Of a stretch of 64,000 bases of DNA, positions 7,311-25,969 are shown one piece after another. The stretch comes from Trypanosoma brucei (taxonomy: Eukaryota), in NCBI GenBank assembly GCA_000002445.1, contig CP000071.1, positions 896,001 through 960,000 on the forward strand, given 5' to 3'. The position numbers and the translations under genes were made by a program. The number at the start of each line of letters is the position of its first letter. Position 1 is the first letter of the stretch. The notes beneath the pieces were generated by a model. It was not told the DNA's origin. It worked only from the letters and a program-made list of their open reading frames with translations, and did not search any database.

Positions 7311-7462
7311 AAACGTGGGTCCTCATTCATCTTCTTGCTTGCGACTTATTCACAAAAATTATGTAGTGAGTATAGCCTTGAAGGGGAAGAAGGAAGCGGA
7401 GGGGGAAACACATCAAACGGGGGGAAGAACTGAACACCACACAAGGCGCCAAGTGTAACACT

Positions 7463-9676
7463 ATGAAATATAGTGGTGACACTCCTGTGGCGGATGATGA
7501 AGCTGTTGACAAGCTTCGAGGTGAGCTGGTCGACCTCCAGAAGCGCTTTATTCTCCTCTTCAAAGCTTCCGGCCAAAGTCTCGAGCAGATTCGGTCAACT
7601 GTTGAATCGTCCCTCAAGTCACGAGCAAATGAACCCACACAAGGTGGGCGATTAAGTGACAGGGACAGCATGCTGCAGGACCTCGTGAGAATTGTTGAGC
7701 GAACTCAGCGTTATGTACAGTTGGCTGGAAAACCTCCACTAGGTTCTGTTTCCGCAGATGCACTCCAGATAGAGTATCAATCGTGGGCAAGCAATATGCC
7801 TACTGCCAGTTCGCATCGCAGTCACGGGGATCATGCAACCACGGAGCAACGTGTGAAGAGTCTTCAACTTGAAAGAGATGACGTTAAGAGGAAACTGCAG
7901 GAAGCGGAAGAGAATAACGCGAAATTGCAGCGGAAACTAAAGGCCGCTGTGCAGAAGTATAACCACCTTGCGAAGAATACGAAGGAGATGGGCGAGCCCA
8001 GTCACACAACGAGAGCTCGCACTTTGAGTCCCAGTGCGCACAATGGCAATTCTTCAAAATCATCGGAAGCAGTGTCTAAACGCTTTACTGGTCACAGCTA
8101 CAGAGATTCCGCCGGACAGCGATCGTGCCGTCAAAATTCTTGTAATGATGTAGTCGGAGATTCTGCGTTTAACAGCCAGCACACCTCAGCCCGTGGTGGA
8201 TCATCGGAGTTTCTGGATGCGGTGCGGCAGGATAACGCCTCACTTCGGAGAGAGGTCACTAAGCTCAAAGAAGAGCTGCGGCAAACACAGCGAGGGGCTA
8301 TTGCGCGAACTAAACAAGGGGACGAGGATGTGGGATCATTGCTTATGAAAATTACTGGCTTGAAGCAGGAGCTTGTGTTGGAGGAGCGGCAGCGAATGGA
8401 CGCCTTGCTGCACTTGGGTGAGGCCAAGCGGGAAAATCAACGACTGGTGACCCAAGTAGAGGAGTTAAAACAACAGCTAGTGCACGTGCAGCAGTCGGAC
8501 GGCCGTGTCCCTGATGTAATCTCCGTCGAAAGCAAAGAGACAAACATTATGAATAGCCTAGGGAAGGAGCTGGGTCACACACAGCAGGTCGCTGCGATGC
8601 AAGTGTTGCAGGCGAAGGAATTGACTCGGGTGTTGGAGAGGATGCAGGACTTCTTACACTCGTCGTTTTTGAAGCAGAGGAAGTTGGTAACGGAGCTAGA
8701 AAAAGCGGGGAAAGGTTGGAGCACCACGCCCCTGCAGCTGGAGGCGGCGCAAACCCACGAGGGTTGCACGCCTGCAAATAAGGTGAAGATAGAGGACGCC
8801 AATGTGTCATCCCCTGGCGTGGAGTCGAGTGGAGGGAAGAGCAGAACGATATTAAAGGCTTCTGATGACAGTGGTAGTAGCGATTTGAACACTTTCTGTG
8901 ACCGGGTACTCACTGTGGACGACGTGGATCCTCTTACCTTGGGCAAGAATGATGGCGACACACATCTTCGTAGTCAGAACAGCGAACTTGTGAAGGAGAA
9001 TCAGCAATTACACGATGCACTTTCCAAACTTTCGATGATGTATCGGTCGACGAAGGAAAAACCCAAAAGTGGTGAGCGGTCGGTGATGGAACGTGAGGCT
9101 CTTCCTCCCGGAGTGAAGCAACCTGACAGGTCTGCTGAGGTTGCAAGCGCAAAAAGGGTTGTGAAGGAGCACGTGCGTAAAGATAATGCAAAAGCACATC
9201 GGGATGCCAAAAAAGAAAAGGCCCAATCCTCACTTCGGGAGCAAGTACCCCCAAAGCAGTTACCGGTGCAACCGCATCAGCTCCCCAAAGCACCAAAACC
9301 CCAAGCTCAACGTGATCTGCCACCAAAGTCACCCGTGCGAAGACACGACTCTCATCTGCAGCGGTCTCGGACGACGACACCGAGACGGGAAGCGCATGCG
9401 CAATACGACCAAAAGCAACGACACAACCTGTCAAGTTCATTGCAAGCTGAGACCGGCTATACTCAGTCGCCTTCAGCTTCTCAGAGTAGAGACGACCGGT
9501 CTTCTTCACATTCCTCCACTAGTACCGCTAGGTTTTTACGTAGATTGGCAGAGTTTCGTTTCCCAAAGGAGGGTGCTGCAAGTGTTCCTGATAGTGGCGA
9601 AAGAAACACAGATAGTGGTAAGGATGATGTGCGGAATTTCTCACCTCCCCGGCTGAGCTATATGAAGTCCACGTAA
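7463..9676 (+). CDS. coiled-coil protein with a basic Pro/Lys-rich C-terminus (hypothetical)
   Basis: The 737 aa ORF has heptad-like Glu/Lys/Leu/Gln-rich segments (e.g. 'LQLERDDVKRKLQEAEENNAKLQRKLKAAVQKY', 'EELKQQLVHVQQ'). The C-terminal ~150 aa are basic ('PPKQLPVQPHQLPKAPKPQAQRDLPPKSP'). Strong poly-T tracts upstream at 7141-7310. Confidence 0.55.
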   Translation: MKYSGDTPVADDEAVDKLRGELVDLQKRFILLFKASGQSLEQIRSTVESSLKSRANEPTQGGRLSDRDSMLQDLVRIVERTQRYVQLAGKPPLGSVSADALQIEYQSWASNMPTASSHRSHGDHATTEQRVKSLQLERDDVKRKLQEAEENNAKLQRKLKAAVQKYNHLAKNTKEMGEPSHTTRARTLSPSAHNGNSSKSSEAVSKRFTGHSYRDSAGQRSCRQNSCNDVVGDSAFNSQHTSARGGSSEFLDAVRQDNASLRREVTKLKEELRQTQRGAIARTKQGDEDVGSLLMKITGLKQELVLEERQRMDALLHLGEAKRENQRLVTQVEELKQQLVHVQQSDGRVPDVISVESKETNIMNSLGKELGHTQQVAAMQVLQAKELTRVLERMQDFLHSSFLKQRKLVTELEKAGKGWSTTPLQLEAAQTHEGCTPANKVKIEDANVSSPGVESSGGKSRTILKASDDSGSSDLNTFCDRVLTVDDVDPLTLGKNDGDTHLRSQNSELVKENQQLHDALSKLSMMYRSTKEKPKSGERSVMEREALPPGVKQPDRSAEVASAKRVVKEHVRKDNAKAHRDAKKEKAQSSLREQVPPKQLPVQPHQLPKAPKPQAQRDLPPKSPVRRHDSHLQRSRTTTPRREAHAQYDQKQRHNLSSSLQAETGYTQSPSASQSRDDRSSSHSSTSTARFLRRLAEFRFPKEGAASVPDSGERNTDSGKDDVRNFSPPRLSYMKST

Positions 9677-10950
9677 ATTTTGTGCGTTCAGTGAGATGAA
9701 GCTCTTTTCCCTCGTGTGAAATGATCGCACATTTGCGTTCTCTGACACTTTGATGAGGTGAGGTTAGATGCGTGGCCTGAGTTCCGCCTTCTCATCCCAT
9801 GATGTTACATTTATGTGACTTATTGTTTTGTTTTTGATTTCCATTCCGTATTTTCCCCTCTTCCAAGCCTCTTAGCGCTCGTATTTTTTTTTTTTTCACA
9901 TTTTTGCCTTTTCCGTCCTTTTGGGGCCGCATTGGGGAACGCAATATGTGCGAGTGCAATGACAGATAGATTTCCATACTTTCTCTTTATTTTAATTCTT
10001 CACTCCATAGGACACGTTCACTGGTGGTGGGTATCGGTGTGTGTGCCTGCCTACTCGCATTATTTATATATACGCTTTTTACACGTCTTGTTCGCTTTAT
10101 CTGTGAGTGGTGATTCAGCCGTTTCGTTGGAGATGTAAATATGCTGCACTAGCCTACTTCTCTGTTTATACACGCGCGTATATGAATGTATAAGTGAACA
10201 CTTCCCTCTTCTGTGTTCTCTACCACTTGCTCATCTTATTTTTTTGTGTGTTTCAGTGGTGGTAGCGCTCCTTCCTCGTGACTACACATCCGCGTTGCAT
10301 TGCGTGTTGTGAGGTTCTGAGAGATGTTTTCAATGTTGTGCCCCCGCGCGTGTTTTTGTTTTTGTTTCTTTTTCCTTTTTTGCGTTTGCTCCACGCAACT
10401 GAGGGTTCCCACAGAATGAGGTCTTTGCGGGTTTGCAGCTGACATGTGAGCACTGCCGCAAAGGGTTGAAAGGCAAAAGCAGAGGGAAAGCGGGGAAAAG
10501 CAAGGGGAACTACGTACGTTAATAAGGCAGAAGTAATGACGGAGTGAATATTTCGGTGGGCTTTTGTACATGTGGGCTTTGTTGCTCCTCCAAACACTGT
10601 GTATGATTGAGCGGGTAAAGAGGGAAAAAAGAATCTGAGCTTGTGTTTGGCCGTTTGGATGTTTGTTGTTGGCCGTTGGTATTGCATGCTTCCATCGTTG
10701 TAAGCCACAGGAAGATGCAAGTTCGAGAAGAAGTGAGGGGTCGAAACATATACATATTATGTATTATACATATATAGAAGTGTGTCGCTCTTGGTGTTGG
10801 CGAGTCGGCGAATGTTATTTAATAGGAATTGATCACTCTGGACTCGGTCCGTTATTGCAGTGTTTTTCATTTGGCGTGCCTCCTCTCCGTTGCTTTTTCC
10901 TATCATAAATATATAATCATTCACGTAAGCTGCAACATTTTTTTGTTTTT

Positions 10951-11277
10951 GTGTTCCTCCTTACTAACTTTTATTTTTGCGTTTGCATCTACAGGCCCCT
11001 CCTCTGCGTAAATTTCCTTTCCTTCCCTCTACCCAATTGTTTTTCTTCCGCCATGCCATTATCTGCAGGAAGTGGACATCGTAACGTTGTCTACTTTCGA
11101 TGTTGTGTTAATTCCCCTTCTGATAAGGTTTCGTCATGCTCGGACATATTTTTCTCACCCCCCCCCCCATTTCCGCCCTTTTGTTGCGAGCTTCTCATAA
11201 CACCCCATTCGGGTTGCTGCGTATTCCCTAATTTCTGTGTCTTCTTCTTCGTACTTTTGAACGTTTTAAGCAAGAGG
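10951..11277 (+). promoter_or_regulatory. long polypyrimidine tract including a C11 homopolymer upstream of the pseudo-helicase gene
   Basis: The + strand is ~80% C/T over >300 nt, with a C-run at 11158-11168. It translates as an F/L/S/C/P-rich pseudo-ORF fused in frame to the downstream gene in the ORF track. Confidence 0.5.
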
Positions 11278-13089
11278 ATGGAGACGAAGCGTAGTTTCGA
11301 CTCTTTGGGCATTCACCCAACATTGGTCGAAGCGCTCCGCCGTGCTGGAGTACGGCCGACGCCGTTTCAGGCGCGCGTATTAGAGAACACCACGACTGAC
11401 CTCGCTGATATCATCGTCGATGCGCGTGCTGTGAGTGGCGAAAGTTCGAGTGGGGTATCGGCCGCTGAAGGTGCCACTAACGCGCAACCGACGGTTTCCG
11501 AGCGAAACAACCTCATGATGATATTTGTGGCGCATTGCGTGCTTTCCTCAAGAGATTCGGCACGCCACATAGGGTTAGTGTTGGCCAACAACAAGGAAAA
11601 CGCTGGGCGTCTACAAAAGTGCGTGGCAAACCTTGCTGCGCGCTGCGGCATTACCGTTGAAACGATGACAAATGAGGGGCAAAAACCACAGCTTCCATCT
11701 GCTGAGGGAGATGAAAGGGAATGCAGCAGCAATGGTGGGAAGCAAACTGATGGTGAAGGAGAATATCGCATCATCATTGCAACAATGCGTGCACTACACT
11801 CCTGGGACAAAGCACTCTTTGCACCCGTCGTAACGTTTGCTGTGGAAGATGCCAGTCGAAGTTTCGATCCGCCGCTGGACGATGTTCTGCGGTTGTTGAC
11901 CCAACCGAACAAAACAGGGCAGGGGCAGTCTAATCGTACTGGATCGCCCTTGCCGTCCCCGGGGGCGCCCGCTTTCGTGCCCAACATATTCCTGATGTGC
12001 CTTGCATCTCCAGTTTCTTTGAAACAGAGTATTAGGTACAGGTTAAACCGAAAAAACCGTCGGTATTACCACATACAAACTCCTTCTGAATCACATCCCC
12101 CTTCGCCGTCCCCCTCCGCAGGTGTTGGTGATGCCACTCAGGACCCCGCATCTGAGCAACTGCATGTGCCACCGAGTACGACGCCACCTGCGTCAACGCA
12201 GGTTCTATACCTGTTGTACATCGATGAGAATGACCGTATGGAGCTGCTGCAGCGTGTACTAAAAATGTACGCGGGTCGTCGCACTCTGTTACTTACTCAC
12301 CATAAGGAGATCCGACAGTTGCATCAGAAGGTGATTAAGTGGGACATGTACAACACTACCGGAGAGGCGGGGGGAAATGGCGGTGGGAGTATAAAAGCGA
12401 CGGAATATGTTCACTGCATGCAGCGCACCGATACTCCCGAGAGACAGGAGTCGACCGTGATGGCCTTCATTCGTGAATCCACATCCGGCAATCGAGGTGG
12501 TGCCGGTAACAAAAAGTCAGTGCCGCCTACGCTCTTGATCGGATGGGATACCTTTACCGCAATAGATCTCGTGGACGTGGATGTGGTTATCCAATACTAC
12601 CCACCGCAAAAGTCAATTACGCGGCAGGAATGTGTTGGATTCGTGCAGGTGCTACACACGACGACTGACCCGAAAGTGGGTGGCCGATGCCACCGCACGA
12701 CGCTTATAACTTTTCTTTCCACCAGCGACTTCACACTAGCCGCCTTCTTCATGGAGCAGTACGGTCTTCGTGGCCATATACTTAACGTCACCCCGTCGCA
12801 CCATCACTTTGAGCGGTGCCTCCGCAATTCGGCCGGTGTCTTGGAGTACAAACTGCGGAAGCAATGCGAGTCACTTCATGACGAGGGTTCTGAATCTAAT
12901 GGCACGGCGCAGTGTTCGATTCCCTTCTCGCGACCGCGTTCACGAAGGCGTGGTAATGGAAACCGAAATGCTGGTAGTAACAATGGCGTCGGCACCAACG
13001 CTAGCACTCAAGCTAATATGAATGCTGCTCCAAGCACGAGCAACAGTGACACCGAAACCCGCCGTCCGCTGGGGCGCCACCGTGGTTGA
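11278..13089 (+). CDS. DEAD-box helicase-like protein with degenerate catalytic motifs (probable pseudo-helicase)
   Basis: 'SFDSLGIHPTLVEALRRAGVRPTPFQARVL' is a good DEAD-box Q-motif with the upstream Phe and PTPFQ. The Walker A (AQTGSGKT) position instead reads 'DIIVDARAVSGES'. The motif II region reads 'FAVEDASRSFDPPLDDVL' (VEDA rather than DEAD). The motif V/VI region 'TLLIGWDTFTAIDLVDVDVVIQYYPPQKSITRQECVGF' lacks HRIGR. The ORF-track start 10951 is a translated polypyrimidine tract; I place the start at ATG 11278. Confidence 0.55.
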   Translation: METKRSFDSLGIHPTLVEALRRAGVRPTPFQARVLENTTTDLADIIVDARAVSGESSSGVSAAEGATNAQPTVSERNNLMMIFVAHCVLSSRDSARHIGLVLANNKENAGRLQKCVANLAARCGITVETMTNEGQKPQLPSAEGDERECSSNGGKQTDGEGEYRIIIATMRALHSWDKALFAPVVTFAVEDASRSFDPPLDDVLRLLTQPNKTGQGQSNRTGSPLPSPGAPAFVPNIFLMCLASPVSLKQSIRYRLNRKNRRYYHIQTPSESHPPSPSPSAGVGDATQDPASEQLHVPPSTTPPASTQVLYLLYIDENDRMELLQRVLKMYAGRRTLLLTHHKEIRQLHQKVIKWDMYNTTGEAGGNGGGSIKATEYVHCMQRTDTPERQESTVMAFIRESTSGNRGGAGNKKSVPPTLLIGWDTFTAIDLVDVDVVIQYYPPQKSITRQECVGFVQVLHTTTDPKVGGRCHRTTLITFLSTSDFTLAAFFMEQYGLRGHILNVTPSHHHFERCLRNSAGVLEYKLRKQCESLHDEGSESNGTAQCSIPFSRPRSRRRGNGNRNAGSNNGVGTNASTQANMNAAPSTSNSDTETRRPLGRHRG

Positions 13090-15398
13090 ATAGGAACCAT
13101 GGAATTCTCTGCAAGTGAGCGGTTATTGTAATGCTTGCGTGTGATGAGTAAGGGAATAAAAGTTGTGGAACTTCGGTTTCAATATCAGCGGCAAAGGGGC
13201 TACGCCATGGGCACACACATATGCATGTGTGTATGTGCGAGTAGGGCACCCGAATGTGTGTGCTTGGCTGCTACATCGCAGCCACGTGTTTGTGTTTGTG
13301 TGCGTGGCACGCTGCTTACTTTATTTTATTCTATTTTTTTTTTCGCATTTTCCCTACGTTTGTTAAATTTTCTCTTATTTCCACATAAAGTGCTGGATGA
13401 AATGAAGATAAACGACATGGTGGTGTAGGGATGAATCTCACCGAGGAAAAAAAGAAAAAAGGGGGAAAACGAAAAACACCACTAAAAACAAAACAAAAAA
13501 AACAAACAGTTCAACTCATACCTTAAAGAGAGTAAAGAGATGCCAAGAGGGGAACGAAAATCTCACAAACACATACTATCGATAGAAGATAGAAGTAAAC
13601 TCGCAATTGGTAAAACAAAAGGAGGGATGATGGTGATGATAAGGGTGCCGATGGTAAGGAGGTGGAGAGAACAGGAATGTTACGAGCAACTGCTGTTGCA
13701 ACTGGAGACGGGGGAGCGGCAATAAATGGAACGATACAAAAGGGTGAAGGTAAAGGCGACAGTAAAGGAATGTATTTGCGGTGAGTCGGTTCTTTTTCGT
13801 GTTGTATTGCTTCATTCTTTTTGTTTTATTTTTGTTTTAGAGGGTGCATATGTCTTCATCCCGTTTGCTGACTCAAATACCTTTCTAACAAACTTATTGG
13901 CCATTTATTCTTGGGCTTTCTTGTTTCCACACGTGGTTTTTCTTCTTTTCCTCTTTCGGGTCGTTTTCGCATCCATTCCGTCAACCTCCTCGCTATCGTT
14001 GTATTTTTTCCGGCTTCGTTCTTTGTTCCCACTTGTGTTTTTTTCTTTACTTTCTGTGCTTTTATTATGATTACTATTATCATTATCATTATTGTTTTTT
14101 TTTCGTTTTCTCTCCTTCCTACACTCCCCAAAACGAGAGAGAAAGGAAAAAGAAACTTGTACGCCACTTTCACAAATGGATGTTGGCGCACAGTTTTCAT
14201 TCCCCGTGTTCGTGTTTGTATAAAATCTATAGGGCATTATCTGGGACTTGCATGAGCGGTGAAAGCCGTCTTTGCTTGCTTCTCTCCTTTGCTCTCTTGT
14301 TTATTGTTTCTTTTTTCTATTTTGTGTGTGCGTGGCCGCTGCGTATCCAATGATTTTTGCACGCCTCGACTCCTCTCTCTCTTACTTTCTTTCGCTCCAG
14401 CGATAAGAAATAGGGAGAACAGCCACAACTAACTAACTAAATAAAAAAAAATAAAAAGAAACGGTCAGGAGGAAGAGAGGGAATAGTCAGGAAAACTAGA
14501 GAATGAAGTGGGAGAGCACGAATAAAAAAAGTGTAGGATGCTTTTCCTGCTGGCAATGCGGGTGTGAGGCAGCTAGGCTGTAGGTGTATTTGTGTATTTT
14601 GATCTTCGCGTGATTGAATACTCAGCTCTCGCCTCCACTTTTATTTTATTTTCCTCCATGCACCGTTCTCATACTTCACCTGTCATTTTCTTTCTCTTTC
14701 TCTGTGCTTCGTGCTTATAGCGAAGGATTCGGTACGCTTGACCGTGAGAGAGGGGGCCCACCAAGTGTTTTTTGTCTTTTTTTTTTTAAACTTTCAATCT
14801 CTTCCTTCCACTCATTTTCGTACTTTTGTATATCCTTTGCGTCTGTTTCTGCTTCATCCCGGTTCTTGTTTTTTTTTTTGCCCACGCTTCATTCTTCTGC
14901 TGTGGAGGGAGGGGGGAAGGGGTTTGAATGTGCCGTTATGAGTCTTGGGTCTAATGTCGACACAACCGTGAGGGTGCCGTGCTGTGGAATGGAGGTGAAG
15001 GAGAGGGAAGAATTTCAGGGAAAGGTGACAAAAAAGAGATTATGTGAAGTGAAAATAGAAGGGAGTGAAACAAAACACCAAAAGTAAAAAAAAAAGGTAC
15101 AGCGGCTAAGGGAGACGGGATGTGAAAGAGGACAGATGAAAGGAAACGAGCAAGTTTGTTTGGCCCCACGTGGCTCCCAGTTCCCCCTTCAACTACCGTC
15201 GACTCGACGATCGTGTGGGATTGTTTTGTCAGCCCTCCTCTCCGCTTCGCCTGGTCCCCCTTTCTTGCTTTCTTTTCTTTTTGTTTTGTGTGCGTGTTTC
15301 TATTCTTCCGGCCCAATGCGTGTCCCCAACGCGTAGGCAACCTAAAACGTTTTGGTTTGTTTTACAGTTTTCGCTTATTTTTCTCTTTTTCTTTCATT

Positions 15399-15417
15399 TG
15401 TGTGTGTGTGTGTGTGT
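15399..15417. repeat. (TG)9 microsatellite
   Basis: Direct read: tgtgtgtgtgtgtgtgtgt inside the T-rich desert. Confidence 0.9.
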
Positions 15418-17659
15418 TTCGCTTAGAGACTTCACTAGAGCCACCTGTCAATACCTTCACACGGTGCGCCGCTTTTTCTTCCATACTGCGCGCATGGACG
15501 TCTGAGGCTCATGTTCATGTGTGTTTTTCCTCGAGTGTACGACATAGCGGCGCTACTGGCGGCTGCAAGGTCGAGTCATTCCCCTTCTTTCTCGTTTGTT
15601 TCTTCTTTTGGATTTCTTGTCTTGTTTTTTTTTGTTAACGCTGTGCCCTTCTTTCCTCGCGTTCCTCGGAACCAATTGCGGTTTCTTTCGTTCTTATGTA
15701 TGACCCCGCCCCTCTTCCATTTGATGTCGCAACGGTCCACCTCTTTCTTTCTAGTGGCCACGTTTTTGTGTTAAGTTACTTGAAGTAGCGATGGGAGAAG
15801 CCTTTTATTGTTTTTTTTGTTTCAGCAGTCCTCTTGTGCCTGTGTTCGTGTTTTTGCGCTTTTGCTTGTGACTGCGGGGCGGGTGTCTTTTCTTTTTTTC
15901 TTTCTCTGCAATCAATTCACTCGTGTGCAATCACGTCTTTCTCAGTTGATTTTTTTTTGTTTCGAGGGTTTGTTTTTCTCCTTTTCCCACTCCCTGTACG
16001 GATGTGCGCATGGAACATACATAAATATATATATGTATTCGTTTCTATATGTTTATTTATACATATATGCGTACATGCTATTTATTTACTGTTGGCCTTT
16101 GGATCTTTTGATGGGATTAGGCCGGCGGGAAAAGGAACGGAGGGTGAGACGTTGGTTGAAGGGAGTTGCTGACACTGCATTGGGGGAAAACTGCGAGTGG
16201 CGGTGATTGTGTGCGTGTTGTAAGACATGAAGCAATGATGATGTGGAAACAGACAGTGAAAGGCATCTGTACGCATACGCGGCGGGCCTTTTCTCTCCTT
16301 AATTTTCGTTCTGTTTCTTGTTTTTCCCCCCTCTTATCTCTCCCTACTTCTCACACTGCGGCTGTGTCTGTGGCGTGACGTTGTTTGGCACATTTATCTT
16401 GTGGAGGGCACACTTTTTTCTTTTTCCTGTTTCTTTTTTCCCTTTTCCTCTTACAACATTCCCATTAACTACCGAAATGGGACAAATTTGGAGGGAAGGC
16501 TGGAAACTGGAGAAAACACCAAAAACAAAACCAAAACAACAACGGCACCAAACGGATGAGCGGGCGAGTGGAGTTCGAAGGTAGACAAGAAATACATATG
16601 CGAGAGGATGTATTTTACCGTTCCTCTCCTTTCAATAGTTTTCCTTCCCCCCTTTCCCCAGACACGAAATATCCCCTTTTCAAGTTTTAACCTGTGTACA
16701 TGCTTTGCGTCTTCCCATCTTCTTTGCTCTTTGTTATTATTGTTATTGATTTACTTATTTGTTTAACGTGAACTTTTTAACTGTTCCCATTTCGTAGCAG
16801 CATGTGGGTTGAACCTCGACCCGAGTGCCTCAACTTTGGCTGCCGCCGGACTGAAAGTGCTGCTGTGGGAAAGTCAGAAGAGGGAAGTGCAAGAACGACG
16901 CGGCAATAATGGAGTGCAACCGCATGCACAAGTTTGTCGGGCTGGTGTTGTCACGCAGCGTTTATTTGCGCCTGTACATGCATGAATACGTGCGTGTTTA
17001 TGAGGGGTTACGAGGAAACAAAGTGCGGGCATGAACTCCAGGGGAGGAGGAAATAAATAACTGGAAAAAAAAAGGAAAGAATAGTGTGGCCGATGCGTAT
17101 GGCTCTGGTGGAAGATGAGGTTCATGTGCGGCAACTCACCGGGCTCTACTCTACATTTCTCTTTTCTTTTTTTTTTTGTCATGCAAATGTTTTTCTCTCC
17201 GATGTTCGTTCCTTTTGCCTCTCTTCCTCCCTTTTGTTTAACGGTGTGACGTGCTTCATAAGCCTTCTCCGTAGTGCAGTAACTGAAGCAGTTCATCGTT
17301 GCTGGGGGGGGGCATGTGCTTGCGTTTTGAAGGTGTGTGTGTGTGGGACTCGCGTGGGTGCGAACTAAACCAAGCCAAGAAGGAAAGAAAAGAAAAAAAA
17401 TGCAGAACAGAAAAAGAAAAATAAAGAGGAGGGAAAAAGATTAATAACTAGACGGTGTGGGGACTACACTGATAAGATGACCAAATTGGTTTGTTATGTT
17501 TTCCAAGTACGGTGGAAGAGTTTCGATTGCGCATTCCCTCCCTTTTTTTTACCTTTCCTACGACCACTGCGTGCTTCCTTCTTTTCATCCAAACGCCCAG
17601 TTGGGGGCCAAGGAAGAGGAAGAAACATTGGCTCGGATTTCTCCATTAAGGATGTCTGC

Positions 17660-17660
<1 letters not shown>

Positions 17661-17686
<26 letters not shown>
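17661..17686. repeat. (AT)13 microsatellite
   Basis: Direct read: atatatatatatatatatatatatat. Confidence 0.95.
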
Positions 17687-17691
<5 letters not shown>

Positions 17692-19833
17692 TATTTGCTT
17701 GTTTTTTTGTACCCTCCTCCAATTTTTGTTTTCCTCACCATGCGCATGTTTTCTTCTTTCCCTTCTCTCTTTTCTTGGCTATATGCCCGCTGACTGTTTT
17801 GGAGGCGGTAAGGACATCAAACGAAGAAAAATTCAGTGCAGGTGACAAAACAAAAGCAAGTACGACTCAGCAATACGTAAGTGTATATGTATTTTCTCGC
17901 ATATGTGTATTAACATATTGCTCCACCCCCATTCAGCTTATGCACCTTTTCCCTGTATTTCTGTATAGTTTGTGCTGCATTGCCGTTAAGTTCACCCTTA
18001 CGATGCCAGCGGTGATGATCTTTTTTTTCTTCTCACCATTGCTTTCCTCCTCCTCCTCCCCTTTTTTGTCTCTTGTATTTGCAGTGGCATCGTTTCTAAC
18101 GGCCATGCGGATCACAATTTTGTACCGACCGCACGGACATGCACTCACGCTGCCACCACTACTGCTGCAGATGTCACCCGCAGACACTCCGGTGTCTCCT
18201 TAGCATTTCGGGCCCTTCAATACTTTTACTCGCTTACTTCATCGTAACCATCACGGGGAGGGGAGACGGCGTATATGAAGGCAGGAGCAATAATATGAAG
18301 CAACATCAACTTTTGTCCCAACTGGAATGCTAACACTCGAAACGGAGCTGACACTTCTCACCTGCAAGGAGGGTAAAATAACAAAAAGTTATCCTTCTAT
18401 CCTACCGTTTCTACCTTTTACAAGCACTTGCGGAGCCACTTGGGACACTTAGGTGCTTTCTGCTCAGTAGGGCCGCGTTCAAAACCAAAAAAAAAAATGA
18501 ATCCTTTATGTGACCTAAATCCCGACGGCTGGTTTGCGGTCACAAATAAACCTACAGTATGAGCGGCTCCAAAGCGGGTTGACACTCGATGTTTCTCCAG
18601 CCAAATGCCACAAACGCATCATTTGCTGCACATATGCAGAGTTGGGGGTTGTGGTGGAGGTTTTGTACCTTGACGATCGCTCTGCATGCTGCATTCGGGA
18701 CACCACCACTCGAAGATGCACCGCTTTGGGGGAAATATGGGGGATACAATTCGGTGTGCTGATATAACTCTGCGCACCACCGATGATCTGTTCCGTCGTA
18801 TGTAAATGCGTTAATCATAAACGTACATAGCGACTGAATTGAGCCCGAAACCGGAAGCGATGTGTATTGTAAATTGCACTGTGTTTGGCAATGTGTTGTG
18901 CGTTGGGGGACCAAAGTCATGTGATGAGGCGCTGCGAGCATAATATTCGCGTGGTTACATACCAATACGTTGGTAGCGAATGGTTTTGCCCTTTACTAAC
19001 CGGGTGGCACCCGCACAACTCTGCAAGGACTTGATCCCGCTTAAGTTTGCGTGCACTGATGAAAAACAACCTGCTTATATTCGAGCGTGGTCCGGGCACC
19101 ACTAACCGTGTTTTGATTCCGTTATATTACCTCCATCCCCTTTTCGTGGTTGATGCACTACCCGCGAGCCGTTCTTTTTATTTGGTCTCAAATGTCTACT
19201 CACGTGTTTTGTTGTTGTGCCTGCGCTACATTTATCAGCCGATGATGCGGGAGACGTAGGAAGTCTGTGAGTTGTAGCAAAAGGTCTTTCTGTTGGCGGT
19301 ACGGTGTTTGCTTTGGCTTTACTCCGTTTCAGTGCTTATGAGCGTTCGTTCAGTTGTGGTTCCACGCTTCGTGTTGTACTGAATGGGAATACTGCGTTTC
19401 GCCTGTCACACTCTGTGCACGTGGTTTGTTCGTGAGTGTACTTTCTTTCCAGGTGTTTGAGTGTCTGTGTGCCGCTACAATTTATCCTTTTGTGTGTTGC
19501 CTTACTGCCCTTTGCTCCGCGGTGAAGCATTTCCTGTAGATTGTGGACGTTCTCAAACTTTTTTCCTTATTCGCCTTCCCTTTTCTCCCAGTGGTAGGCA
19601 GCGTGAAGCTGTGGATACTGCACCGGTATATTTCTCGTTTCCGTATGTTTCGCATATCCTCATGTTTTCACAGTTTCTTTCTCAATGCTGTCCGCTGCAC
19701 CTTCATCGCTGACGTGCTGTACGGCTGCCGTTACAGCCCACACATTGGAATGTGCCACCATCCGTACGTGTACGTGAAAACAGTGTTGTTTTGCGTCTCC
19801 AGTCGTCCGGAGCAGCGGCTTGAACGTGAGTAT

Positions 19834-20253
19834 ATGCGTGGTCTTATCGAACACCTTGTCGCGTGCGATGCGAAGCACGATACGCAGACAAAACTAGAAC
19901 TGATGCGGTTTGTTGACGTCGTGCCGGCCGCCGCAAGCCTCGGTGGTAGCGGCCACAGTGAGGTGCTGAGCGCCGGAAAAATGGGTGGTGAAAGCGGAAT
20001 GTCCTCTTTCTTCACGGGTACTCTCTTCCCCGCAGTGTTGGGTCATGTGTTACTATACGACGCGGTTTGCGTATGTATGTCAGGTGGTTTGTACGACGAT
20101 GCGGCGCGCGACTGCGTGGCGCAGGTGGCGGCAAGGCTAGGTGTCTCTCAGCACGGCCGGGAAATGATTGAAAAAGCGGCAATACGTGAGCATCAGTTGG
20201 CTGCGATGAAGCGGCAGCTGCTTCTCCTACCTGAGACCCCGCCACTGCGTTGA
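19834..20253 (+). CDS. small hypothetical protein (~140 aa); the start is uncertain
   Basis: The 3' part of ORF 19543..20253 has coding-like composition ('MRGLIEHLVACDAKHDTQTKLELMRFVDVVPAAASLGG...'). The 5' 97 codons are F/L/S/C-rich, i.e. a translated pyrimidine tract. Alternative ATGs lie at 19750 and 19543. Confidence 0.3.
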   Translation: MRGLIEHLVACDAKHDTQTKLELMRFVDVVPAAASLGGSGHSEVLSAGKMGGESGMSSFFTGTLFPAVLGHVLLYDAVCVCMSGGLYDDAARDCVAQVAARLGVSQHGREMIEKAAIREHQLAAMKRQLLLLPETPPLR

Positions 20254-21126
20254 GAGACGCTTTGGGAGGTAACTGCAAGAGCGGCACCCGTCTAATTTTG
20301 GAGTGGAAAGGCTTGCAAGAGCTGTGTAGTTGTCTTACATTGTCTTTGGCGTGTGCATGGGCAAGGTTGCGGTATTGGTGTGCTTCCCAAATCCTGCTGC
20401 TCCATGCGTTTTATTCCTTGTTGTCACTGCTATGTTTTGCGTGTCCCATCGTGTTAGTAAATTAAACCTCAATAGCCACCACGACTCGATCATCAGAACA
20501 TTGGAGTGTTGACGCATTGGCTTAGAACCTGTGACCCGCCTCTTCGCAAATGTGGCGCCGGTGCATAGCGATGTTTTTGCCACTGTGTTGATTGTAATGC
20601 CTAAGTTGACGTGCACAACTTGATCCCTTAGCGTTGAGGAGGGATGCGCGAAGGCGAAGGGATTGAATGTCTTCTCTTGATGTGTTTTTTTTCTTATTGT
20701 CGACTTTCTTGTCGGCGTTGCCGTGCCCCCCAATTGGCGTGAGTCGAGGAGCTTGCACACATAGCTTGCGCGCACAGCATCACTAGACTTCTGTGGGGTT
20801 CATGTGTGGTGTGTCTCGACATTGGCATTGCGATCGCTATCAAAAGCTGCAATAGCGGATAGTGTATAGACGGCAGTTACAGCCGTGATCGCACAGCGGT
20901 AAGAGGCATAATGTTTATAGTGCACGACACAAAACAATGAATCCAATGGCGACCTGTGCCTTCCCCCAAATAACCTGGAAAAATATCTCTGTCTATTTAC
21001 TGTGAAGTTGGACGTAGCTCTGCTTTCTTCCTTCTCCTTTTTGCCTTTGCCCACTACAGTCATTCTAACAAGGTTAGCAGCCTTTTTGTTGTCGTTGTTG
21101 TAAACCCGCAGGAAACAAGTACATAT

Positions 21127-22842
21127 TTGAGTGACGCAATGACCACAGCAACCGTCAAGCCCGAAATTGTCATAGCGGTTCTCTCCATGTGCGGCCTGCT
21201 GACGGTTGTTGTCATCATTCTGCTGGTGTGCTCGTGGTGGTCTCGCCGCAAAGCTGGAGCTTATGCAGGATCTGCTCTTTATCGCGGGTTCAAGCGACGC
21301 CATCAATTCGAGCTCGTCTGTACACCTGGTCCGGGTGCTCACGCCGCTCCGCTGGAGGTTCAACTGCGCACATCGCATGTTGACCCTTGCGACATACTTG
21401 TGGATGTGCAGTACACACCGCCTGGCTTCCTCAAGGAATGTGATCGTACCGCTGTCTCCCCAGCACGACTATTGGGTGCTGATGAACACTATGGTGAACA
21501 ATATCTGCTTTACAGTCACCCGTTTGTGTTCCGGGGACCCGGCCGATACACGGTCAACGCACACACCGTCTCGCCTTCCATGCGGTATGTGGGCGCGGTG
21601 CATAATTTCTGCTTCGACGTGCTCCCCGGGGACACGCCGTCAGGGTCTGGAGACACTGAAATGGAGGCGAGCTGTCAGCATGCCAACGATTTCTCCAGGC
21701 ACGACTTTTCCACCCAGCGGGATGTAGCAACGAAATGCAGCATCACACCGATCAGGCATCCTTTGCCACCGCGCATCATTCCCAATGAGGGTGAAGTGAC
21801 AACATTTACTCCAATAATTATCACCACTAACAACGAAAGTACGACGGCCGATCAGATCCGGTACAGCGTGGACGGTAGATACCCATCGTTGCTGTACACG
21901 GGGCCGTTCACGCTCTCTGTGCCGCCTTTCAGCAATGCGTGTAATGGCTCGTCGGTGCCAGTCGTTGTGCGTGCTGTCGCCGTGTCCGGAAGTGATACGG
22001 GACTAACGAGTGAGGTTGTGACTGCGAACTTTACGGTGTATAGGGCGGGCCACAGTTTCTTTGATCCGCAGGTACCGGCCCCGGTTGCGCGTGTGCATGC
22101 TGTGAACGCCAAGCTGTACTTTGATGAGTCCCGTCGCCCACCGAACACGAACATCTTATACCAGCTAGTTTACGTCAGTGAAGCACGCCAGAAGCCAAAG
22201 TTCTCTCGCAGGCGGGGATTCGTGTACACTGGAGAGTTTGTTCCGCTGCGTGAGGACGTTGCCTTTATCTACGCCTGGACGTTTGTGGGTGATGGCAATG
22301 GCGATGGGACGGGGGTGGACCTCGACGAGGTGAACGGCGGTGGGCGTCGCCACATTCGCAGCTCAGCCGCTGTGTACGACTGTCGTCGTGGCACATCGTG
22401 GAACCGTGAGGCTCGGGATGAGGGAGGGTTGCACCCTCACAATAACGACCGTACTCATCGCGGTGACCTGTCGCCACCGGTCATCTGCGTCAGCTGCAGT
22501 GAGATGGAGGTATTCTTTGAGGATCCACCCGCGGGAGGCGTTGTGTGCTACACCCTTGACCGAACTGAGCCAGCAGCTCCCGGTGGAGCGACGGCACCTG
22601 AACAGGCAGTGAGGGTTGGTCTTGGTACAGGAGCGCAGCAGCTCGCGCGATTTGGGCCGGGGCCGAATCTCAGCACGTACGTGTACAAGTCCAACCAGCC
22701 GATTCACGTGACGCTTCTGCAGACGGAGCAGGTGTTCGTTACCGCGCGTACGTTTATTCCCGTTGCGGACGGTGCCGCTGGCGACGCCGTTACCTGCTAC
22801 CGTTTCAGTGATCGTTTCTTCCGTGGCTTTGCCATACAGTGA
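21127..22842 (+). CDS. hypothetical membrane protein with an N-terminal transmembrane anchor
   Basis: 571 aa ORF. Residues ~12-38 'IVIAVLSMCGLLTVVVIILLVCSWW' form one hydrophobic helix followed by 'SRRKAGAY' (positive-inside). The rest has coding-like composition with no recognisable domain. Confidence 0.5.
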   Translation: MSDAMTTATVKPEIVIAVLSMCGLLTVVVIILLVCSWWSRRKAGAYAGSALYRGFKRRHQFELVCTPGPGAHAAPLEVQLRTSHVDPCDILVDVQYTPPGFLKECDRTAVSPARLLGADEHYGEQYLLYSHPFVFRGPGRYTVNAHTVSPSMRYVGAVHNFCFDVLPGDTPSGSGDTEMEASCQHANDFSRHDFSTQRDVATKCSITPIRHPLPPRIIPNEGEVTTFTPIIITTNNESTTADQIRYSVDGRYPSLLYTGPFTLSVPPFSNACNGSSVPVVVRAVAVSGSDTGLTSEVVTANFTVYRAGHSFFDPQVPAPVARVHAVNAKLYFDESRRPPNTNILYQLVYVSEARQKPKFSRRRGFVYTGEFVPLREDVAFIYAWTFVGDGNGDGTGVDLDEVNGGGRRHIRSSAAVYDCRRGTSWNREARDEGGLHPHNNDRTHRGDLSPPVICVSCSEMEVFFEDPPAGGVVCYTLDRTEPAAPGGATAPEQAVRVGLGTGAQQLARFGPGPNLSTYVYKSNQPIHVTLLQTEQVFVTARTFIPVADGAAGDAVTCYRFSDRFFRGFAIQ

Positions 22843-23953: not shown

Positions 23954-25969
23954 ATGCTCAAGAGAGTTATTGCGAGGGCAAGCCTCCCCAAGTCGTTGGA
24001 TGTACTGCCGCTTTTTTCTTTTTCGAAGAAGGGCAAGGGTGGTATCGAGAAGGTTGCTGGTGACAGCCAAGTAAAATCCCTTGTGTCCCACCCAAAATGC
24101 GTGTCGGCACATTTTTGCAATCCTAAGGACCACTCTGAAGCTTTACGTGAAGACGACGATGGAGGTGATGTGGATAAACACGACGCAGTGGATGTGCCTT
24201 TTGGTTTCCGTGATGCACCGGGGAATATTTTGTTGGATCCGGAGCGGCGGCGCCTCTTTGCCGGCATTGGTGAGAAACCAACGGTGCGGGACTATCGCCT
24301 AGCCGTGACGGCTGCTGTACGCGAAGCGTCTAAGTTAAAAGCATCAGCACTGGTTATGCGTTCTCTGCCAAATGTGCTGTATTCGGTTGGAGACTTGTTT
24401 CAGCCTGCGAGCGCTCTCCCGGCGGAGGACGTAGCTGAAAAAACGGTTACTTATGCCGTCGCGGCGGCGTATCGGTACGACCGATTTCTATCGAAGGCTA
24501 AAGGTGGCTTGCCCCCTCCGAGCCGTGGTAGGCGAAATAAGGCGGTTGCAGAAGGGAGTCATGAGCAGTTGAATTTAATTATTGACTGCGGGGACAAGAC
24601 TTCTATTGCCAGTGGAAATATCATTGGACATTGCATAAATGACGCACGAAACCTGGGTAATCTTCGTGAGGATGAGGGCACTCCGCAGTTTTACTGTGAG
24701 TGGATTCATCAGGAACTGGCCCCACTTGGCATTAAGGTGCAGAACGTGTTGCACGGAGAGCAGCTTGAGAAGGCGGGGTTGAACCTCATATACAACGTTG
24801 GAAAGGGGTCAAAACACACGCCTTATTTGGTTGTGTTTGAGTACGTCGGTGACAAGAGGAGCAATAAGGCAACTGCCCTCGTGGGCAAGGGTGTTACATT
24901 TGATTGCGGTGGTCTTAACATTAAACCATTCGGGTCGATGGAGACGATGCACATGGATATGATGGGTGCAGCCACGGTTATGGCTACGATGAAGGCTATC
25001 GCCGAACTTCAACTACCAGTTAACGTTGTGGCCGCCGTTGGGCTCGCGGAAAACGCGATCGGTCCAAGCAGCTACCACCCATCATGCATTTTGACTAGCC
25101 GCAAAGGACTAAGTGTTGAGGTGTTGAACACGGATGCCGAGGGGAGGCTTGTACTTGCTGACACACTGACTTACCTTCAGAAGGACGCTAAACTAGTGAA
25201 GAAGGCCGATACGATCATCGACATTGCGACCCTCACAGGCGCAATTGTTGTCGGCCTTGGGAGCCGGCGTGCAGGTCTCTTTGGCAACGACATCGCGCTG
25301 GTGCAGCAGCTTATGGCTAGCGGGCGAAGCAGTGGGGAGGAGGTTTGGCCGATGCCCATCGGGGATGAACACCAGAGGGCGATCAAAGGGAATATTGCCG
25401 ACCTTGTTAACGTACCGAGCGTGCGTGAGGGCGGTTCCTGCACTGCAGCGGCGTTCCTAAGCAACTTTGTGGAGAAAGATGTGAAATGGGCGCATCTTGA
25501 TATTGCAGGTTCGGGGATGGGGACCGACAAGCCAAGGGGATTCCAACCAGCGGGGGCACCCGGATTTGGTGTTGAGCTTCTGGTGGACTACTTTCGCCAG
25601 CACGTCATGGCTTCTTCAAAGGGAGTGTCGACGGGTAAGGATGGAAGCCACGGTGATGCGGAAGAGTCTACTCAAGAAGAGGGTGCTAATGCTGAAGTGA
25701 GTGAGGAAAATACCAAAAGATCTAAGACCAGCGCAGGTGGAAAGAAGTTAACGAAAAATGCCGAACCGAAGGAAGGAAAGGGCAAAGAAGCAAAACCCAA
25801 CGTGAAGGGTACGAAAGGTGGCAGAAAGGTTGGAGAAAAAGGCACGGAAGGCAAAGGAAAAGCGGCCAGCCCGGCTGAAAAGAAGAGGGTGAAAAAGGCA
25901 CCTGCGGCCAAGCAGGGTCGCCGGGCAGTGAAGGGGAACCCGAAAGGAAAGAAAAGGTCTGGCAATTGA
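23954..25969 (+). CDS. M17-family leucyl aminopeptidase with a C-terminal Lys/Gly/Ala-rich basic tail
   Basis: 'NTDAEGRLVLADTLTY' is the M17 signature NTDAEGRL. 'VGKGVTFDCGGLNIKP' matches the M17 GKG.TFDSGG.S.K motif. The metal/bicarbonate-site context 'MKAIAELQLPVNVVAAVGLAENAI' is present. The last ~110 aa run 'KKLTKNAEPKEGKGKEAKPNVKGTKGGRKVGEKGTEGKGKAASPAEKKRVKKAPAAKQGRRAVKGNPKGKKRSGN'. Confidence 0.85.
   Translation: MLKRVIARASLPKSLDVLPLFSFSKKGKGGIEKVAGDSQVKSLVSHPKCVSAHFCNPKDHSEALREDDDGGDVDKHDAVDVPFGFRDAPGNILLDPERRRLFAGIGEKPTVRDYRLAVTAAVREASKLKASALVMRSLPNVLYSVGDLFQPASALPAEDVAEKTVTYAVAAAYRYDRFLSKAKGGLPPPSRGRRNKAVAEGSHEQLNLIIDCGDKTSIASGNIIGHCINDARNLGNLREDEGTPQFYCEWIHQELAPLGIKVQNVLHGEQLEKAGLNLIYNVGKGSKHTPYLVVFEYVGDKRSNKATALVGKGVTFDCGGLNIKPFGSMETMHMDMMGAATVMATMKAIAELQLPVNVVAAVGLAENAIGPSSYHPSCILTSRKGLSVEVLNTDAEGRLVLADTLTYLQKDAKLVKKADTIIDIATLTGAIVVGLGSRRAGLFGNDIALVQQLMASGRSSGEEVWPMPIGDEHQRAIKGNIADLVNVPSVREGGSCTAAAFLSNFVEKDVKWAHLDIAGSGMGTDKPRGFQPAGAPGFGVELLVDYFRQHVMASSKGVSTGKDGSHGDAEESTQEEGANAEVSEENTKRSKTSAGGKKLTKNAEPKEGKGKEAKPNVKGTKGGRKVGEKGTEGKGKAASPAEKKRVKKAPAAKQGRRAVKGNPKGKKRSGN

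Follow-up and report, generated by a model that had tools for sequence, protein, structure and literature searches.

A gene-free interval of about 6.4 kb on Trypanosoma brucei chromosome 8 is probably the long 3'UTR of Tb927.8.3020, at a site where related species carry BAR-domain genes

What fills the unusually long gap between two neighbouring coding sequences in an otherwise dense polycistronic unit of Trypanosoma brucei? The DNA analysed here (the window, a single stretch of 64 kb) comes from chromosome 8, and positions in the window equal the chr8_v4 coordinates minus 896,000; this offset was checked with three ORFs, which match the GeneDB v4 coordinates of chromosome 8 exactly. The gap at 13090-19644, which separates the stop codon (13087-13089) and the next real ATG (19645), measures 6,555 nt; whereas the remaining 20 stop-to-ATG spacers in the window measure 300-2,233 nt, with a median of ~985 nt. 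The ORF desert of ~6.4 kb reported in the initial annotation is therefore real. The range of 0.3-1.6 kb given there for the other spacers holds at its lower bound only, since the spacer at 43277-45509 is 2.2 kb long; and the end proposed for the desert, 19540, is merely the edge of a GTG-started frame, which coincides neither with the mapped poly(A) site nor with the next ATG. The candidate explanations were an unusually long 3'UTR of the upstream gene, a regulatory or chromatin element within the transcription unit, a lost or pseudogenised gene, and a locus for a non-coding transcript. The favoured reading, with a probability of about 0.9, is that 13090-19478 is the 3'UTR of the Tb927.8.3020 mRNA. 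As such, the interval is already known from published end-mapping and is ordinary for trypanosomes. Its length is the sole unusual trait; in base composition the interval resembles ordinary T. brucei spacers. The synteny comparison of BAR-domain genes at the Tb927.8.3020/Tb927.8.3040 site is the new part of this analysis.

The coding potential of the interval was assessed with a codon log-odds model trained on genes of the same window, in which real genes score 0.12-0.34 bits per codon. The interval contains 57 open frames with 60 or more codons, and 56 of these score 0.09 bits per codon or lower; the lone exception is an antisense frame of 88 codons, with 0.17 bits per codon. Sliding windows of the same model are negative throughout 13200-19200, which bears out the earlier statement that no ORF here has a coding-like composition. 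Moreover, a Pfam search of the largest internal ORFs on both strands returned no match and no domain. One of these ORFs has been annotated as Tb927.8.3030 (Table 1). It has no Pfam match, is absent from the coding-like frames of the codon model, and is listed among the annotated ORFs without a detectable transcript (Kolev et al. 2010, Table S2, PMC2936537). The internal ORFs had been regarded as artefacts, and this view is correct.

The composition of the interval had been described as strand-asymmetric, with alternating pyrimidine-rich and purine-rich blocks. Most of these blocks lie where they were placed; whereas the T/C-rich block at 14.6-16.5 kb is not continuous, since stretches that are either neutral or rich in purines break it up near 14.84-15.09 and 16.09-16.59 kb. 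A further purine-rich block at 16.84-17.09 kb had been missed. As a special trait, the asymmetry does not hold, because the values of the interval (GC 0.444, T 0.329, Y 0.542) are near those of all other spacers pooled (GC 0.457, T 0.314, Y 0.522). The only raised measure is the share of bases in pyrimidine runs of at least 12, which is 7.6% in the interval and 3.2% in the other spacers. The microsatellites mentioned in the initial annotation are present, and three of them were located with Tandem Repeats Finder (Table 1). Except for TA and TG microsatellite families, no dispersed or inverted repeats were detected across the window. A motif scan showed that only homopolymer runs in the interval exceed shuffled sequences; and known T. 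brucei regulatory motifs (RBP10 UAUUUUUU, AREs, PUF motifs) are not enriched relative to the other spacers.

Searches for RNA genes were also negative. Rfam at gathering thresholds gave no match in the whole window, the E-value mode on 13000-19700 returned only low-complexity noise (mir-297 on both strands, CrcZ), and a tRNA and tmRNA scan found none. A snoRNA cluster or structured RNA gene was rejected on the grounds that there is no Rfam family, no tRNA and no repeat unit beyond the microsatellites. A retroposon or dispersed repeat was considered as well; there are no copies of the interval within the window, and no Pfam domain in its internal ORFs.

The upstream gene, Tb927.8.3020, encodes a product with 99% identity to protein P0001 of T. 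b. gambiense, which is on FN554971.1. The label 'pseudo-helicase' given to it earlier could not be confirmed, as neither a Pfam helicase domain, even with the E-value limit relaxed to 10, nor a meaningful match to a PDB sequence was obtained. Its true start is probably the ATG at 11278 (METKRS..., 603 aa), instead of the annotated start at 11053. The mapped 5' end at 907264, i.e. 11264 in the window, is inside the annotated ORF (Kolev Table S1, PMC2936537); alignments of the orthologues start at residues 74-81 of the annotated protein; and the codon-model score is low before ~11400. The 5' end is less certain than the 3' end, because CG, not AG, precedes position 11264 in the window sequence and a 5'UTR of 638 nt is given in TriTrypDB-derived data.

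The ends of the mRNA have been mapped by RNA-seq (Kolev et al. 2010, PMC2936537). One Tb927.8.3020 transcript is placed at 907264-915478 on chr8_v4, i.e. 11264-19478 in the window, in this single study of procyclic cells of another strain aligned to TREU927 v4, from whose published tables the ends were taken. The stop codon, which ends at 13089, and the poly(A) site thus belong to one same-strand transcript. The predominant poly(A) site (915478) defines a 3'UTR of 6,389 nt, and the averaged site (914032) one of 4,943 nt, with a dispersion of 1,446 (Table S13). This dispersion implies that a substantial share of the Tb927.8.3020 molecules end earlier than 19478; moreover, the gene is flagged 'alt 3UTR' in Table S3. 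The same table gives 915592 as the 5' end of the Tb927.8.3040 transcript, which is directly preceded by AG in the window. The distance of 114 nt between the two sites falls within the ~100-200 nt expected upstream of the polypyrimidine tract and AG of the next gene, and the published median distance is 142 nt (PMC2936537). Orthologues of Tb927.8.3040 were located in T. cruzi, T. rangeli, T. vivax and Leishmania.

No novel transcript is listed between 893,271 and 945,614 (Kolev Table S7, PMC2936537), and none from the interval occurs among the novel lncRNAs found by nanopore sequencing. Furthermore, a single uninterrupted Pol II unit, which extends from Tb927.8.2890 to Tb927.8.3520 and lacks an internal start, covers the region (Kolev Table S14, PMC2936537). 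Mapping of spliced-leader and poly(A) sites had been proposed as a check on the nature of the interval, and the published data end the upstream mRNA at 19478. They show that the candidate of an unusually long 3'UTR was correct, in line with the lack of coding potential or of an independent gene in the interval (codon scan, Pfam, Kolev Tables S2 and S7). A tract scan of the interval found at least 14 polypyrimidine tracts with an AG after them, including those at 13815-13838, 14095-14120, 15255-15287, 17156-17177 and 17749-17776. These might be cryptic trans-splice and polyadenylation signals used in alternative processing.

Table 1. Coordinates of the features in and around the interval (positions in the window)
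Feature	Position	Strand	Description
Tb927.8.3020 coding sequence	11278..13089	+	conserved hypothetical protein; 'DEAD-box helicase-like' in some databases
3'UTR of Tb927.8.3020 mRNA (favoured reading)	13090..19478	+	6,389 nt, predominant isoform; alternatively processed (Kolev Tables S3, S13)
(TG)9.5 microsatellite	15399..15417	.	Tandem Repeats Finder
Longest internal polypyrimidine tract followed by AG	16413..16452	+	tract scan; candidate cryptic trans-splice/polyadenylation signal
Tb927.8.3030, spurious annotated ORF	17496..18203	+	235 aa, F/L/S/C-rich, inside the 3'UTR of Tb927.8.3020
(TA)13.5 microsatellite	17660-17686	.	Tandem Repeats Finder
(TCC)5 microsatellite	18045-18059	.	Tandem Repeats Finder
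Predominant poly(A) addition site of Tb927.8.3020	19476..19480	+	19478, within CTAC/AA; 915478 in Kolev Table S13
Tb927.8.3040 splice signals	19560..19592	+	polypyrimidine tract 19560-19589, AG 19590-19591, first exon base 19592
Tb927.8.3040 coding sequence, next gene downstream	19645..20253	+	202 aa; Kolev coordinates 915645-916253

Pol II thus reads across the whole region within this polycistronic unit, and the Tb927.8.3020 mRNA is cleaved and polyadenylated mainly at 19478. The tract and AG at 19560-19591 direct the addition of the spliced leader to Tb927.8.3040 at 19592, and the two events are joined by the usual trypanosome coupling of polyadenylation to downstream trans-splicing. Some Tb927.8.3020 molecules are processed at internal sites; a full-length mRNA of ~8.2 kb (11264-19478) would require that most of the internal tract and AG signals are skipped. 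Bloodstream forms contain 2.22 copies of the mRNA per cell and procyclic forms 2.09 (BS/PC ratio 1.06), with half-lives of 17.6 and 32.2 min, respectively. Since there are about two copies per cell in both life stages, the UTR does not act as a stage switch at the mRNA level. It is probably a large platform for RNA-binding proteins, with a putative role in setting the low mRNA abundance or in controlling translation.

Comparison of the syntenic loci showed that related species carry one to three BAR-domain genes at the position of the T. brucei interval. A synteny comparison had been suggested in order to see whether a gene occupies this position elsewhere, and in other species this is the case. 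Two Flabarin-related BAR-domain genes are here called A and B. In T. rangeli and Leishmania they are flanked by the Tb927.8.3020 and Tb927.8.3040 orthologues; in T. theileri and T. conorhini they follow immediately on the orthologue of Tb927.8.3020. In T. vivax they are directly upstream of the Tb927.8.3040 orthologue, and the Tb927.8.3020 orthologue is outside the locus examined. The T. cruzi locus keeps gene B only, and no relic of gene A was found there by profile HMM or tblastn. The T. brucei window has neither gene, and no relic of them is detectable. Profile HMMs, built from up to 5 species for A and 7 for B, with T. vivax and Leishmania among them, were compared with the six-frame translation of 13000-19700; the best match had E = 0.2, and the matches at this value or worse were mostly on the wrong strand (270 six-frame pieces). 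The T. vivax tblastn search gave only noise (E of at least 0.4), located elsewhere in the window. Moreover, no T. brucei protein is among the 30 looked-up matches of an exhaustive profile search.

A long stretch without a called gene is also found in the relatives. The Tb927.8.3020 orthologue is followed by 4.0-7.6 kb with no called gene in T. cruzi, T. rangeli, T. conorhini and T. theileri; whereas the other spacers of these loci measure 0.1-2.1 kb. After this stretch comes gene A or, in the case of T. cruzi, gene B. In T. vivax, at least 6.8 kb upstream of gene A have no called gene, and genes A and B with the two following spacers take up ~7.2 kb (6792-13949 of locus L009). The long gene-free stretch is probably older than the loss of the BAR-domain genes, because it is present in Trypanosoma species that keep these genes. 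At the nucleotide level, the interval shows only chance-level short matches to the syntenic spacers of T. cruzi, T. theileri and T. vivax. A block of 70 nt is conserved among T. cruzi, T. rangeli and T. conorhini, and is absent from T. brucei, T. vivax and T. theileri.

These observations suggest that the common ancestor had a Flabarin-related BAR cluster between Tb927.8.3020 and Tb927.8.3040, which the T. brucei lineage later lost. After such a loss, the next usable splice acceptor, and hence the poly(A) site, would be that of Tb927.8.3040. A tentative and rather unlikely extension is that the extreme UTR is a by-product of this loss, polyadenylation having defaulted to the Tb927.8.3040 acceptor, with the internal processing sites as remnants of the signals of the lost genes; in addition, the long gene-free stretch, which shows no sequence conserved between distant species, could reflect selection on UTR length or on a DNA-level feature instead of on sequence. 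The earlier candidate of a lost or pseudogenised gene is thus acceptable as history, given the BAR-domain genes at this site in the relatives; however, no relic of a gene is left in T. brucei. That the interval itself represents the pseudogenised remains of A and B, now passively transcribed, is very improbable. The presence of A and/or B between or adjoining the orthologues in Leishmania, T. vivax, T. theileri, T. rangeli, T. conorhini and T. cruzi, and the lack of a T. brucei protein among the looked-up profile matches, would fit such decay; whereas the HMM and tblastn results give no trace of it, and the species that keep the genes have the 4.0-7.6 kb stretch in addition to them. Deletion fits better than decay in place, because T. 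brucei has 6.55 kb in total, compared with ~7.2 kb plus at least 6.8 kb in T. vivax.

Alternatively, the interval might chiefly give rise to independent lncRNAs that are capped with the spliced leader and function in their own right, the real Tb927.8.3020 mRNA being short. The 'alt 3UTR' flag implies some internal processing, the averaged poly(A) position precedes the predominant one by 1.4 kb, and internal pyrimidine tracts followed by AG are available. Nevertheless, this reading is improbable, since the distal poly(A) site is the predominant one, neither Kolev Table S7 nor the nanopore lncRNAs include a transcript from the interval, no Rfam family matches, and sequence conservation does not extend beyond the T. 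brucei subspecies. The candidate of a non-coding transcript locus is weakly favoured by the Table S3 class, which includes a putative non-coding 3' fragment; however, no independent transcript is listed. Another reading assumes a DNA-level element, for example an origin of replication, a chromatin boundary, or a site inside the interval where transcription starts or stops, so that the conserved length in Trypanosoma reflects the element and not the mRNA. It is consistent with the long gene-free stretch shared by T. brucei, T. cruzi, T. rangeli, T. conorhini and T. theileri, with no conserved sequence between distant species, and with the comparable stretch in T. vivax. Moreover, T. b. brucei and T. 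b. gambiense differ less in the interval, with 7.0 substitutions per kb, than in the pooled other spacers (16.1), although the latter are few and very heterogeneous, with 0 to 33 substitutions per kb. Such an element is extremely improbable, because the single unit in Kolev Table S14 has no boundary at the interval, which also speaks against an internal Pol II start or stop, and because tandem repeat arrays, tRNA genes and retroelements, the kind of features that mark such sites, are lacking. The earlier proposal of a regulatory or chromatin element within the transcription unit therefore finds no support.

As a long 3'UTR, the interval matters mainly for annotation: it is alternatively processed, it contains a spurious ORF, and its poly(A) site is set by the downstream splice site, all of which are traits known from T. 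brucei. The synteny, in turn, documents the loss of a BAR-domain cluster in the T. brucei lineage, and the locus may be used to ask whether gene loss lengthens neighbouring UTRs.

The genes A and B are named 'BAR domain-containing protein' in UniRef, and their profile matches a Paratrypanosoma protein named 'Flabarin' (E = 5.7e-5). The flagellar BAR-domain proteins Flabarin and FlabarinL (LmjF.27.1730; Tb927.11.2410, Tb927.11.2400) are distant relatives. Flabarin proper is found at another locus (Leishmania chromosome 27, T. brucei chromosome 11) and in another orthologue group than A and B; it is the chromosome 8-syntenic paralogues that are absent from the T. brucei window. The processing of Tb927.8.3020 also has known parallels. 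Alternative 3'UTR processing was reported for 394 genes, which yield, besides the full-length mRNA, a shorter one and a putative non-coding 3' fragment (Kolev Table S3, PMC2936537), and Tb927.8.3020 is itself a member of this class. The 3'UTRs in that study have a median of 388 nt and range up to about 6,000 nt (PMC2936537), so that 6,389 nt is at the very top of the range. Likewise, Tb927.8.3030 is a standard case among the 805 annotated ORFs without their own transcript (Kolev Table S2, PMC2936537), for example Tb927.1.3060-3100 and Tb927.8.5790, being a low-complexity 'hypothetical' ORF embedded in the UTR of a neighbour.

The closest parallel in length is RBP10 (Tb927.8.2780), an example of the T. 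brucei 3'UTRs of at least 5 kb. Its 3'UTR of ~7.3 kb is likewise of multi-kilobase size, lies inside a polycistronic unit on the same chromosome, and is low-complexity and U-rich, with a poly(A) site set by the splicing signal of the next gene. Experimental dissection of the RBP10 3'UTR revealed six or more separate elements that confer bloodstream-specific expression; whereas the Tb927.8.3020 mRNA is equally abundant in both stages, and the regulatory role of its UTR is putative. Being among the longest 3'UTRs in the 2010 data set and belonging to an mRNA that is not stage-regulated, it might serve as a test case for functions of long UTRs beyond developmental switching.

The gene-free interval 13090-19644, between the coding sequences of Tb927.8.3020 and Tb927.8.3040, is the experimentally mapped 3'UTR of Tb927.8.3020. 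Three ORFs of the window correspond exactly to the GeneDB v4 chromosome 8 coordinates in Kolev et al. 2010 (PMC2936537) after subtraction of 896,000, which places the window at roughly 896-960 kb of T. brucei chromosome 8. A T. brucei gambiense protein on FN554971.1 shares 99% identity with the protein encoded upstream of the interval. Further downstream, the M17 aminopeptidase at 23954-25969 is consistent with TbLAP1 (Tb927.8.3060), which was described as about 70 kDa. The 145-aa ORF directly 3' of it (27210-27647) is probably Tb927.8.3070, on the basis of gene order and size only; Tb927.8.3070 is a diverged 17-kDa ATP synthase Fo subunit (PMC9034290).

Coordinates of the genes and conserved features at the site (L004-L010, loci of related species)
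Feature	Sequence	Position	Chromosome 8 position	Source
Tb927.8.3020	window	11053-13089	907053-909089	PMC2936537 supplement match
Tb927.8.3030	window	17496-18203	913496-914203	PMC2936537 supplement match
Tb927.8.3040	window	19645-20253	915645-916253	PMC2936537 supplement match
BAR-domain genes	L004	16798-17892		
BAR-domain genes	L005	19774 to locus end		
BAR-domain genes	L006	16518-18925		
BAR-domain genes	L008	9354-11805		
BAR-domain genes	L009 (T. vivax)	6792-11164		
BAR-domain genes	L010	6335-15528		
~70-nt block	L004	15406-15503		
~70-nt block	L006	15165-15255		
~70-nt block	L008	8588-8673		

Spliced-leader acceptor and poly(A) sites were mapped genome-wide in procyclic T. brucei by Kolev et al. 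2010 (PMC2936537); the published tables were used here rather than the reads, and they represent one life stage of a strain other than that of the window. The Tb927.8.3020 transcript, with the flag 'alt 3UTR', extends over 907264-915478 (window 11264-19478; Table S3). Its predominant poly(A) coordinate is 915478, with a 3'UTR of 6,389 nt; the averaged coordinate is 914032, with a 3'UTR of 4,943 nt and a dispersion of 1,446 nt (Table S13). Since the 3'UTR lengths in that study have a median of 388 nt and range to about 6,000 nt (PMC2936537), this 3'UTR is at the upper end of what was measured. Position 19592 is the first base of the Tb927.8.3040 transcript and comes immediately after an AG (19590-19591) with a 30-nt pyrimidine tract before it; the poly(A) site (19478) precedes this splice site by 114 nt, close to the median distance of 142 nt (PMC2936537). 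The interval sequence agrees with the published mapping, and every trypanosome 3'UTR feature that was tested is present. An unusually long 3'UTR of the upstream gene, one of the explanations offered in the initial annotation, is thus the correct one, and it had been published by 2010.

A transcription-unit boundary, a structured RNA gene and a repeat element were rejected, whereas internal processing may yield a stable non-coding fragment. As to an independent transcript, the novel transcripts of chromosome 8 in Table S7 pass from 892400-893271 to 945614-945885, so that none lies in the interval (PMC2936537), and a list of novel nanopore lncRNAs is empty from 857 kb to 1,046 kb of this chromosome. 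Tb927.8.3030 is an annotated ORF without a detectable transcript of its own (Table S2), and such ORFs often belong to the UTR of a neighbour (PMC2936537); the earlier view of this ORF as an artefact is in line with that. Against a boundary between transcription units, a single Pol II unit is given from Tb927.8.2890 to Tb927.8.3520, and no internal start was seen in it (Table S14; PMC2936537). For a structured RNA gene, no Rfam family was found in the whole window at gathering thresholds (the E-value mode gave only low-complexity noise), and no tRNA was found. For a repeat element, the repeat search returned microsatellites only.

Genes were taken as long plus-strand ATG ORFs, and spacers were measured from stop to ATG. 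The interval (6,555 nt) is the only exceptional spacer, as had been proposed; the other spacers measure 300-2,233 nt, with a median near 985, and not 0.3-1.6 kb. The second-longest spacer (43277-45509, 2,233 nt) is followed only by a 170-aa ORF (45510-46022). Under a codon log-odds model with the genes of the window as training set, every real gene scored 0.12-0.34 bits per codon in frame; among the 57 open frames in the interval that are 60 codons or longer, 56 scored 0.09 or less. The exception, a short antisense frame with 0.17, is unremarkable given 57 tries, and the sliding-window scores are negative along the whole interval, in agreement with the proposed lack of coding-like ORFs. Pyrimidine-rich and purine-rich blocks do alternate; however, their extent had been partly misstated. 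GC, T and pyrimidine fractions are 0.444, 0.329 and 0.542 in the interval versus 0.457, 0.314 and 0.522 in the other spacers pooled, and the spacers of this unit generally share the T-over-A skew of the sense strand. Runs of 12 or more pyrimidines are about 2.4-fold denser than in the other spacers. The interval is exceptional in length only; in base composition as a whole it resembles the other spacers.

Between T. b. brucei and T. b. gambiense, the interval has 7.0 differing sites per kb, compared with 6.2 in coding sequence and 16.1 in the other spacers; since the latter are few and their values vary between 0 and 33 per kb, the comparison hints only weakly at constraint. Divergence is locally high over 20254-22842, with 33 substitutions per kb in the spacer 20254-21138 and 14 in the Tb927.8.3050 coding sequence (21139-22842), versus about 6 for coding sequences overall.

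The order of a HIT-domain gene, 5-formyltetrahydrofolate cyclo-ligase, two hypothetical genes and the Tb927.8.3020 orthologue is conserved in related species. The synteny comparison suggested earlier revealed Flabarin-related genes at the site, in tandem except in T. cruzi: gene A (231-259 aa) followed by gene B (364-394 aa) in T. rangeli, T. conorhini and T. theileri, and gene B without gene A in T. cruzi. In T. vivax, gene A and gene B precede the orthologues of Tb927.8.3040, Tb927.8.3050 and the aminopeptidase; in Leishmania, gene A, gene B and a third paralogue lie between the Tb927.8.3020 and Tb927.8.3040 orthologues. Over all species, gene A encodes about 231-281 aa and gene B 364-749 aa. 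The products are named 'BAR domain-containing' in UniRef, with Paratrypanosoma Flabarin as a distant match; they are distinct from Flabarin proper (Leishmania chromosome 27, T. brucei chromosome 11). In one T. cruzi assembly (GCA_000496795.1, locus L002, 16793-17883), gene B is split in the alignment into two pieces that lie in different frames and overlap near 17254-17278, through either a strain frameshift or an assembly error; it is intact in two other T. cruzi assemblies.

Homologues from across the trypanosomatids, T. vivax among them, came up in an exhaustive profile search with gene B. T. brucei is absent among the 30 named homologues (11 further weak hits are not included), and absence elsewhere in its genome is judged from annotated proteins in the searched collections only. 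Since the genes are found at the site across relatives, the cluster is ancestral there and missing in T. brucei. A lost or pseudogenised gene, as suggested initially, therefore holds as evolutionary history; however, neither profile HMMs nor T. vivax queries detected any relic of A or B in the interval, and a pseudogene relic was rejected.

A long gene-free stretch also follows the Tb927.8.3020 orthologue in T. cruzi (4.9 kb), T. rangeli (4.65 kb), T. conorhini (4.0 kb) and T. theileri (7.6 kb, including 716 N), and at least 6.8 kb without a called gene lie upstream of gene A in T. vivax; the remaining spacers of these Trypanosoma loci are 0.1-2.1 kb. The corresponding Leishmania stretch measures 2.9 kb. 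Because the stretch is long in Trypanosoma species that keep the BAR genes, the long tail is probably older than the gene loss. Gene A, gene B and the two following spacers of T. vivax occupy about 7.2 kb beyond that stretch, versus 6.55 kb altogether in T. brucei, and deletion is therefore more probable than decay in place. The T. brucei interval has no nucleotide similarity to its T. cruzi, T. theileri and T. vivax counterparts. The long spacers of T. cruzi, T. rangeli and T. conorhini share a conserved ~70-nt block (…GGTTGATATCATTCATCA…CTTGTGCGGAGTCTTATCACTGA.GTTGAT…, then a T-run), placed about 0.7-1.3 kb before the next gene. The block is absent in T. brucei, T. vivax and T. theileri and may be an element of processing or regulation.

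Tb927.8.3020 probably does not start at the annotated position (11053); the ATG at 11278 (METKRS..., 603 aa) is the more probable start. The first 75 annotated codons are a translated pyrimidine tract rich in F, C and P, and orthologue alignments start near 11278. The transcript 5' end was mapped at 11264 (PMC2936537); CG rather than AG precedes it in the window, which may be due to a difference between strains or to a non-canonical site. According to a TriTrypDB-derived table the 5'UTR is 638 nt long, which suggests further acceptor sites. UniRef names the 11278-13089 product 'DEAD-box RNA helicase' or 'RNA helicase' (T. brucei, T. cruzi). The earlier pseudo-helicase label was not confirmed: the T. 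brucei, T. cruzi and Leishmania orthologues gave no hit to a Pfam helicase domain up to E = 10, and a PDB sequence search gave no meaningful match. The helicase label has a basis other than ordinary sequence profiles.

The interval is transcribed within the polycistron, the trans-splicing signal of Tb927.8.3040 fixes the 3' end of Tb927.8.3020, and part of the molecules are processed internally. Pyrimidine tracts of at least 20 nt followed by AG occur at least 14 times in the interval; these are plausible cryptic processing signals, and a full-length mRNA would need them to be usually ignored. Bloodstream forms contain about 2.2 copies of Tb927.8.3020 mRNA per cell (half-life 17.6 min) and procyclic forms about 2.1 (32.2 min); the mRNA belongs to the 'normal' processing class, and at the mRNA level the UTR does not act as a developmental switch. 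Known motifs (RBP10 UAUUUUUU, AREs, PUF sites) are no denser in the interval than in other spacers. The most likely role is plausibly a generic one, with many weak putative protein-binding sites lowering abundance or tuning translation. The small addition to knowledge is the loss of the BAR-domain cluster in the T. brucei lineage beside a conserved long UTR. Among T. brucei 3'UTRs of 5 kb or more, the best studied is that of RBP10 (7.3 kb), on the same chromosome.
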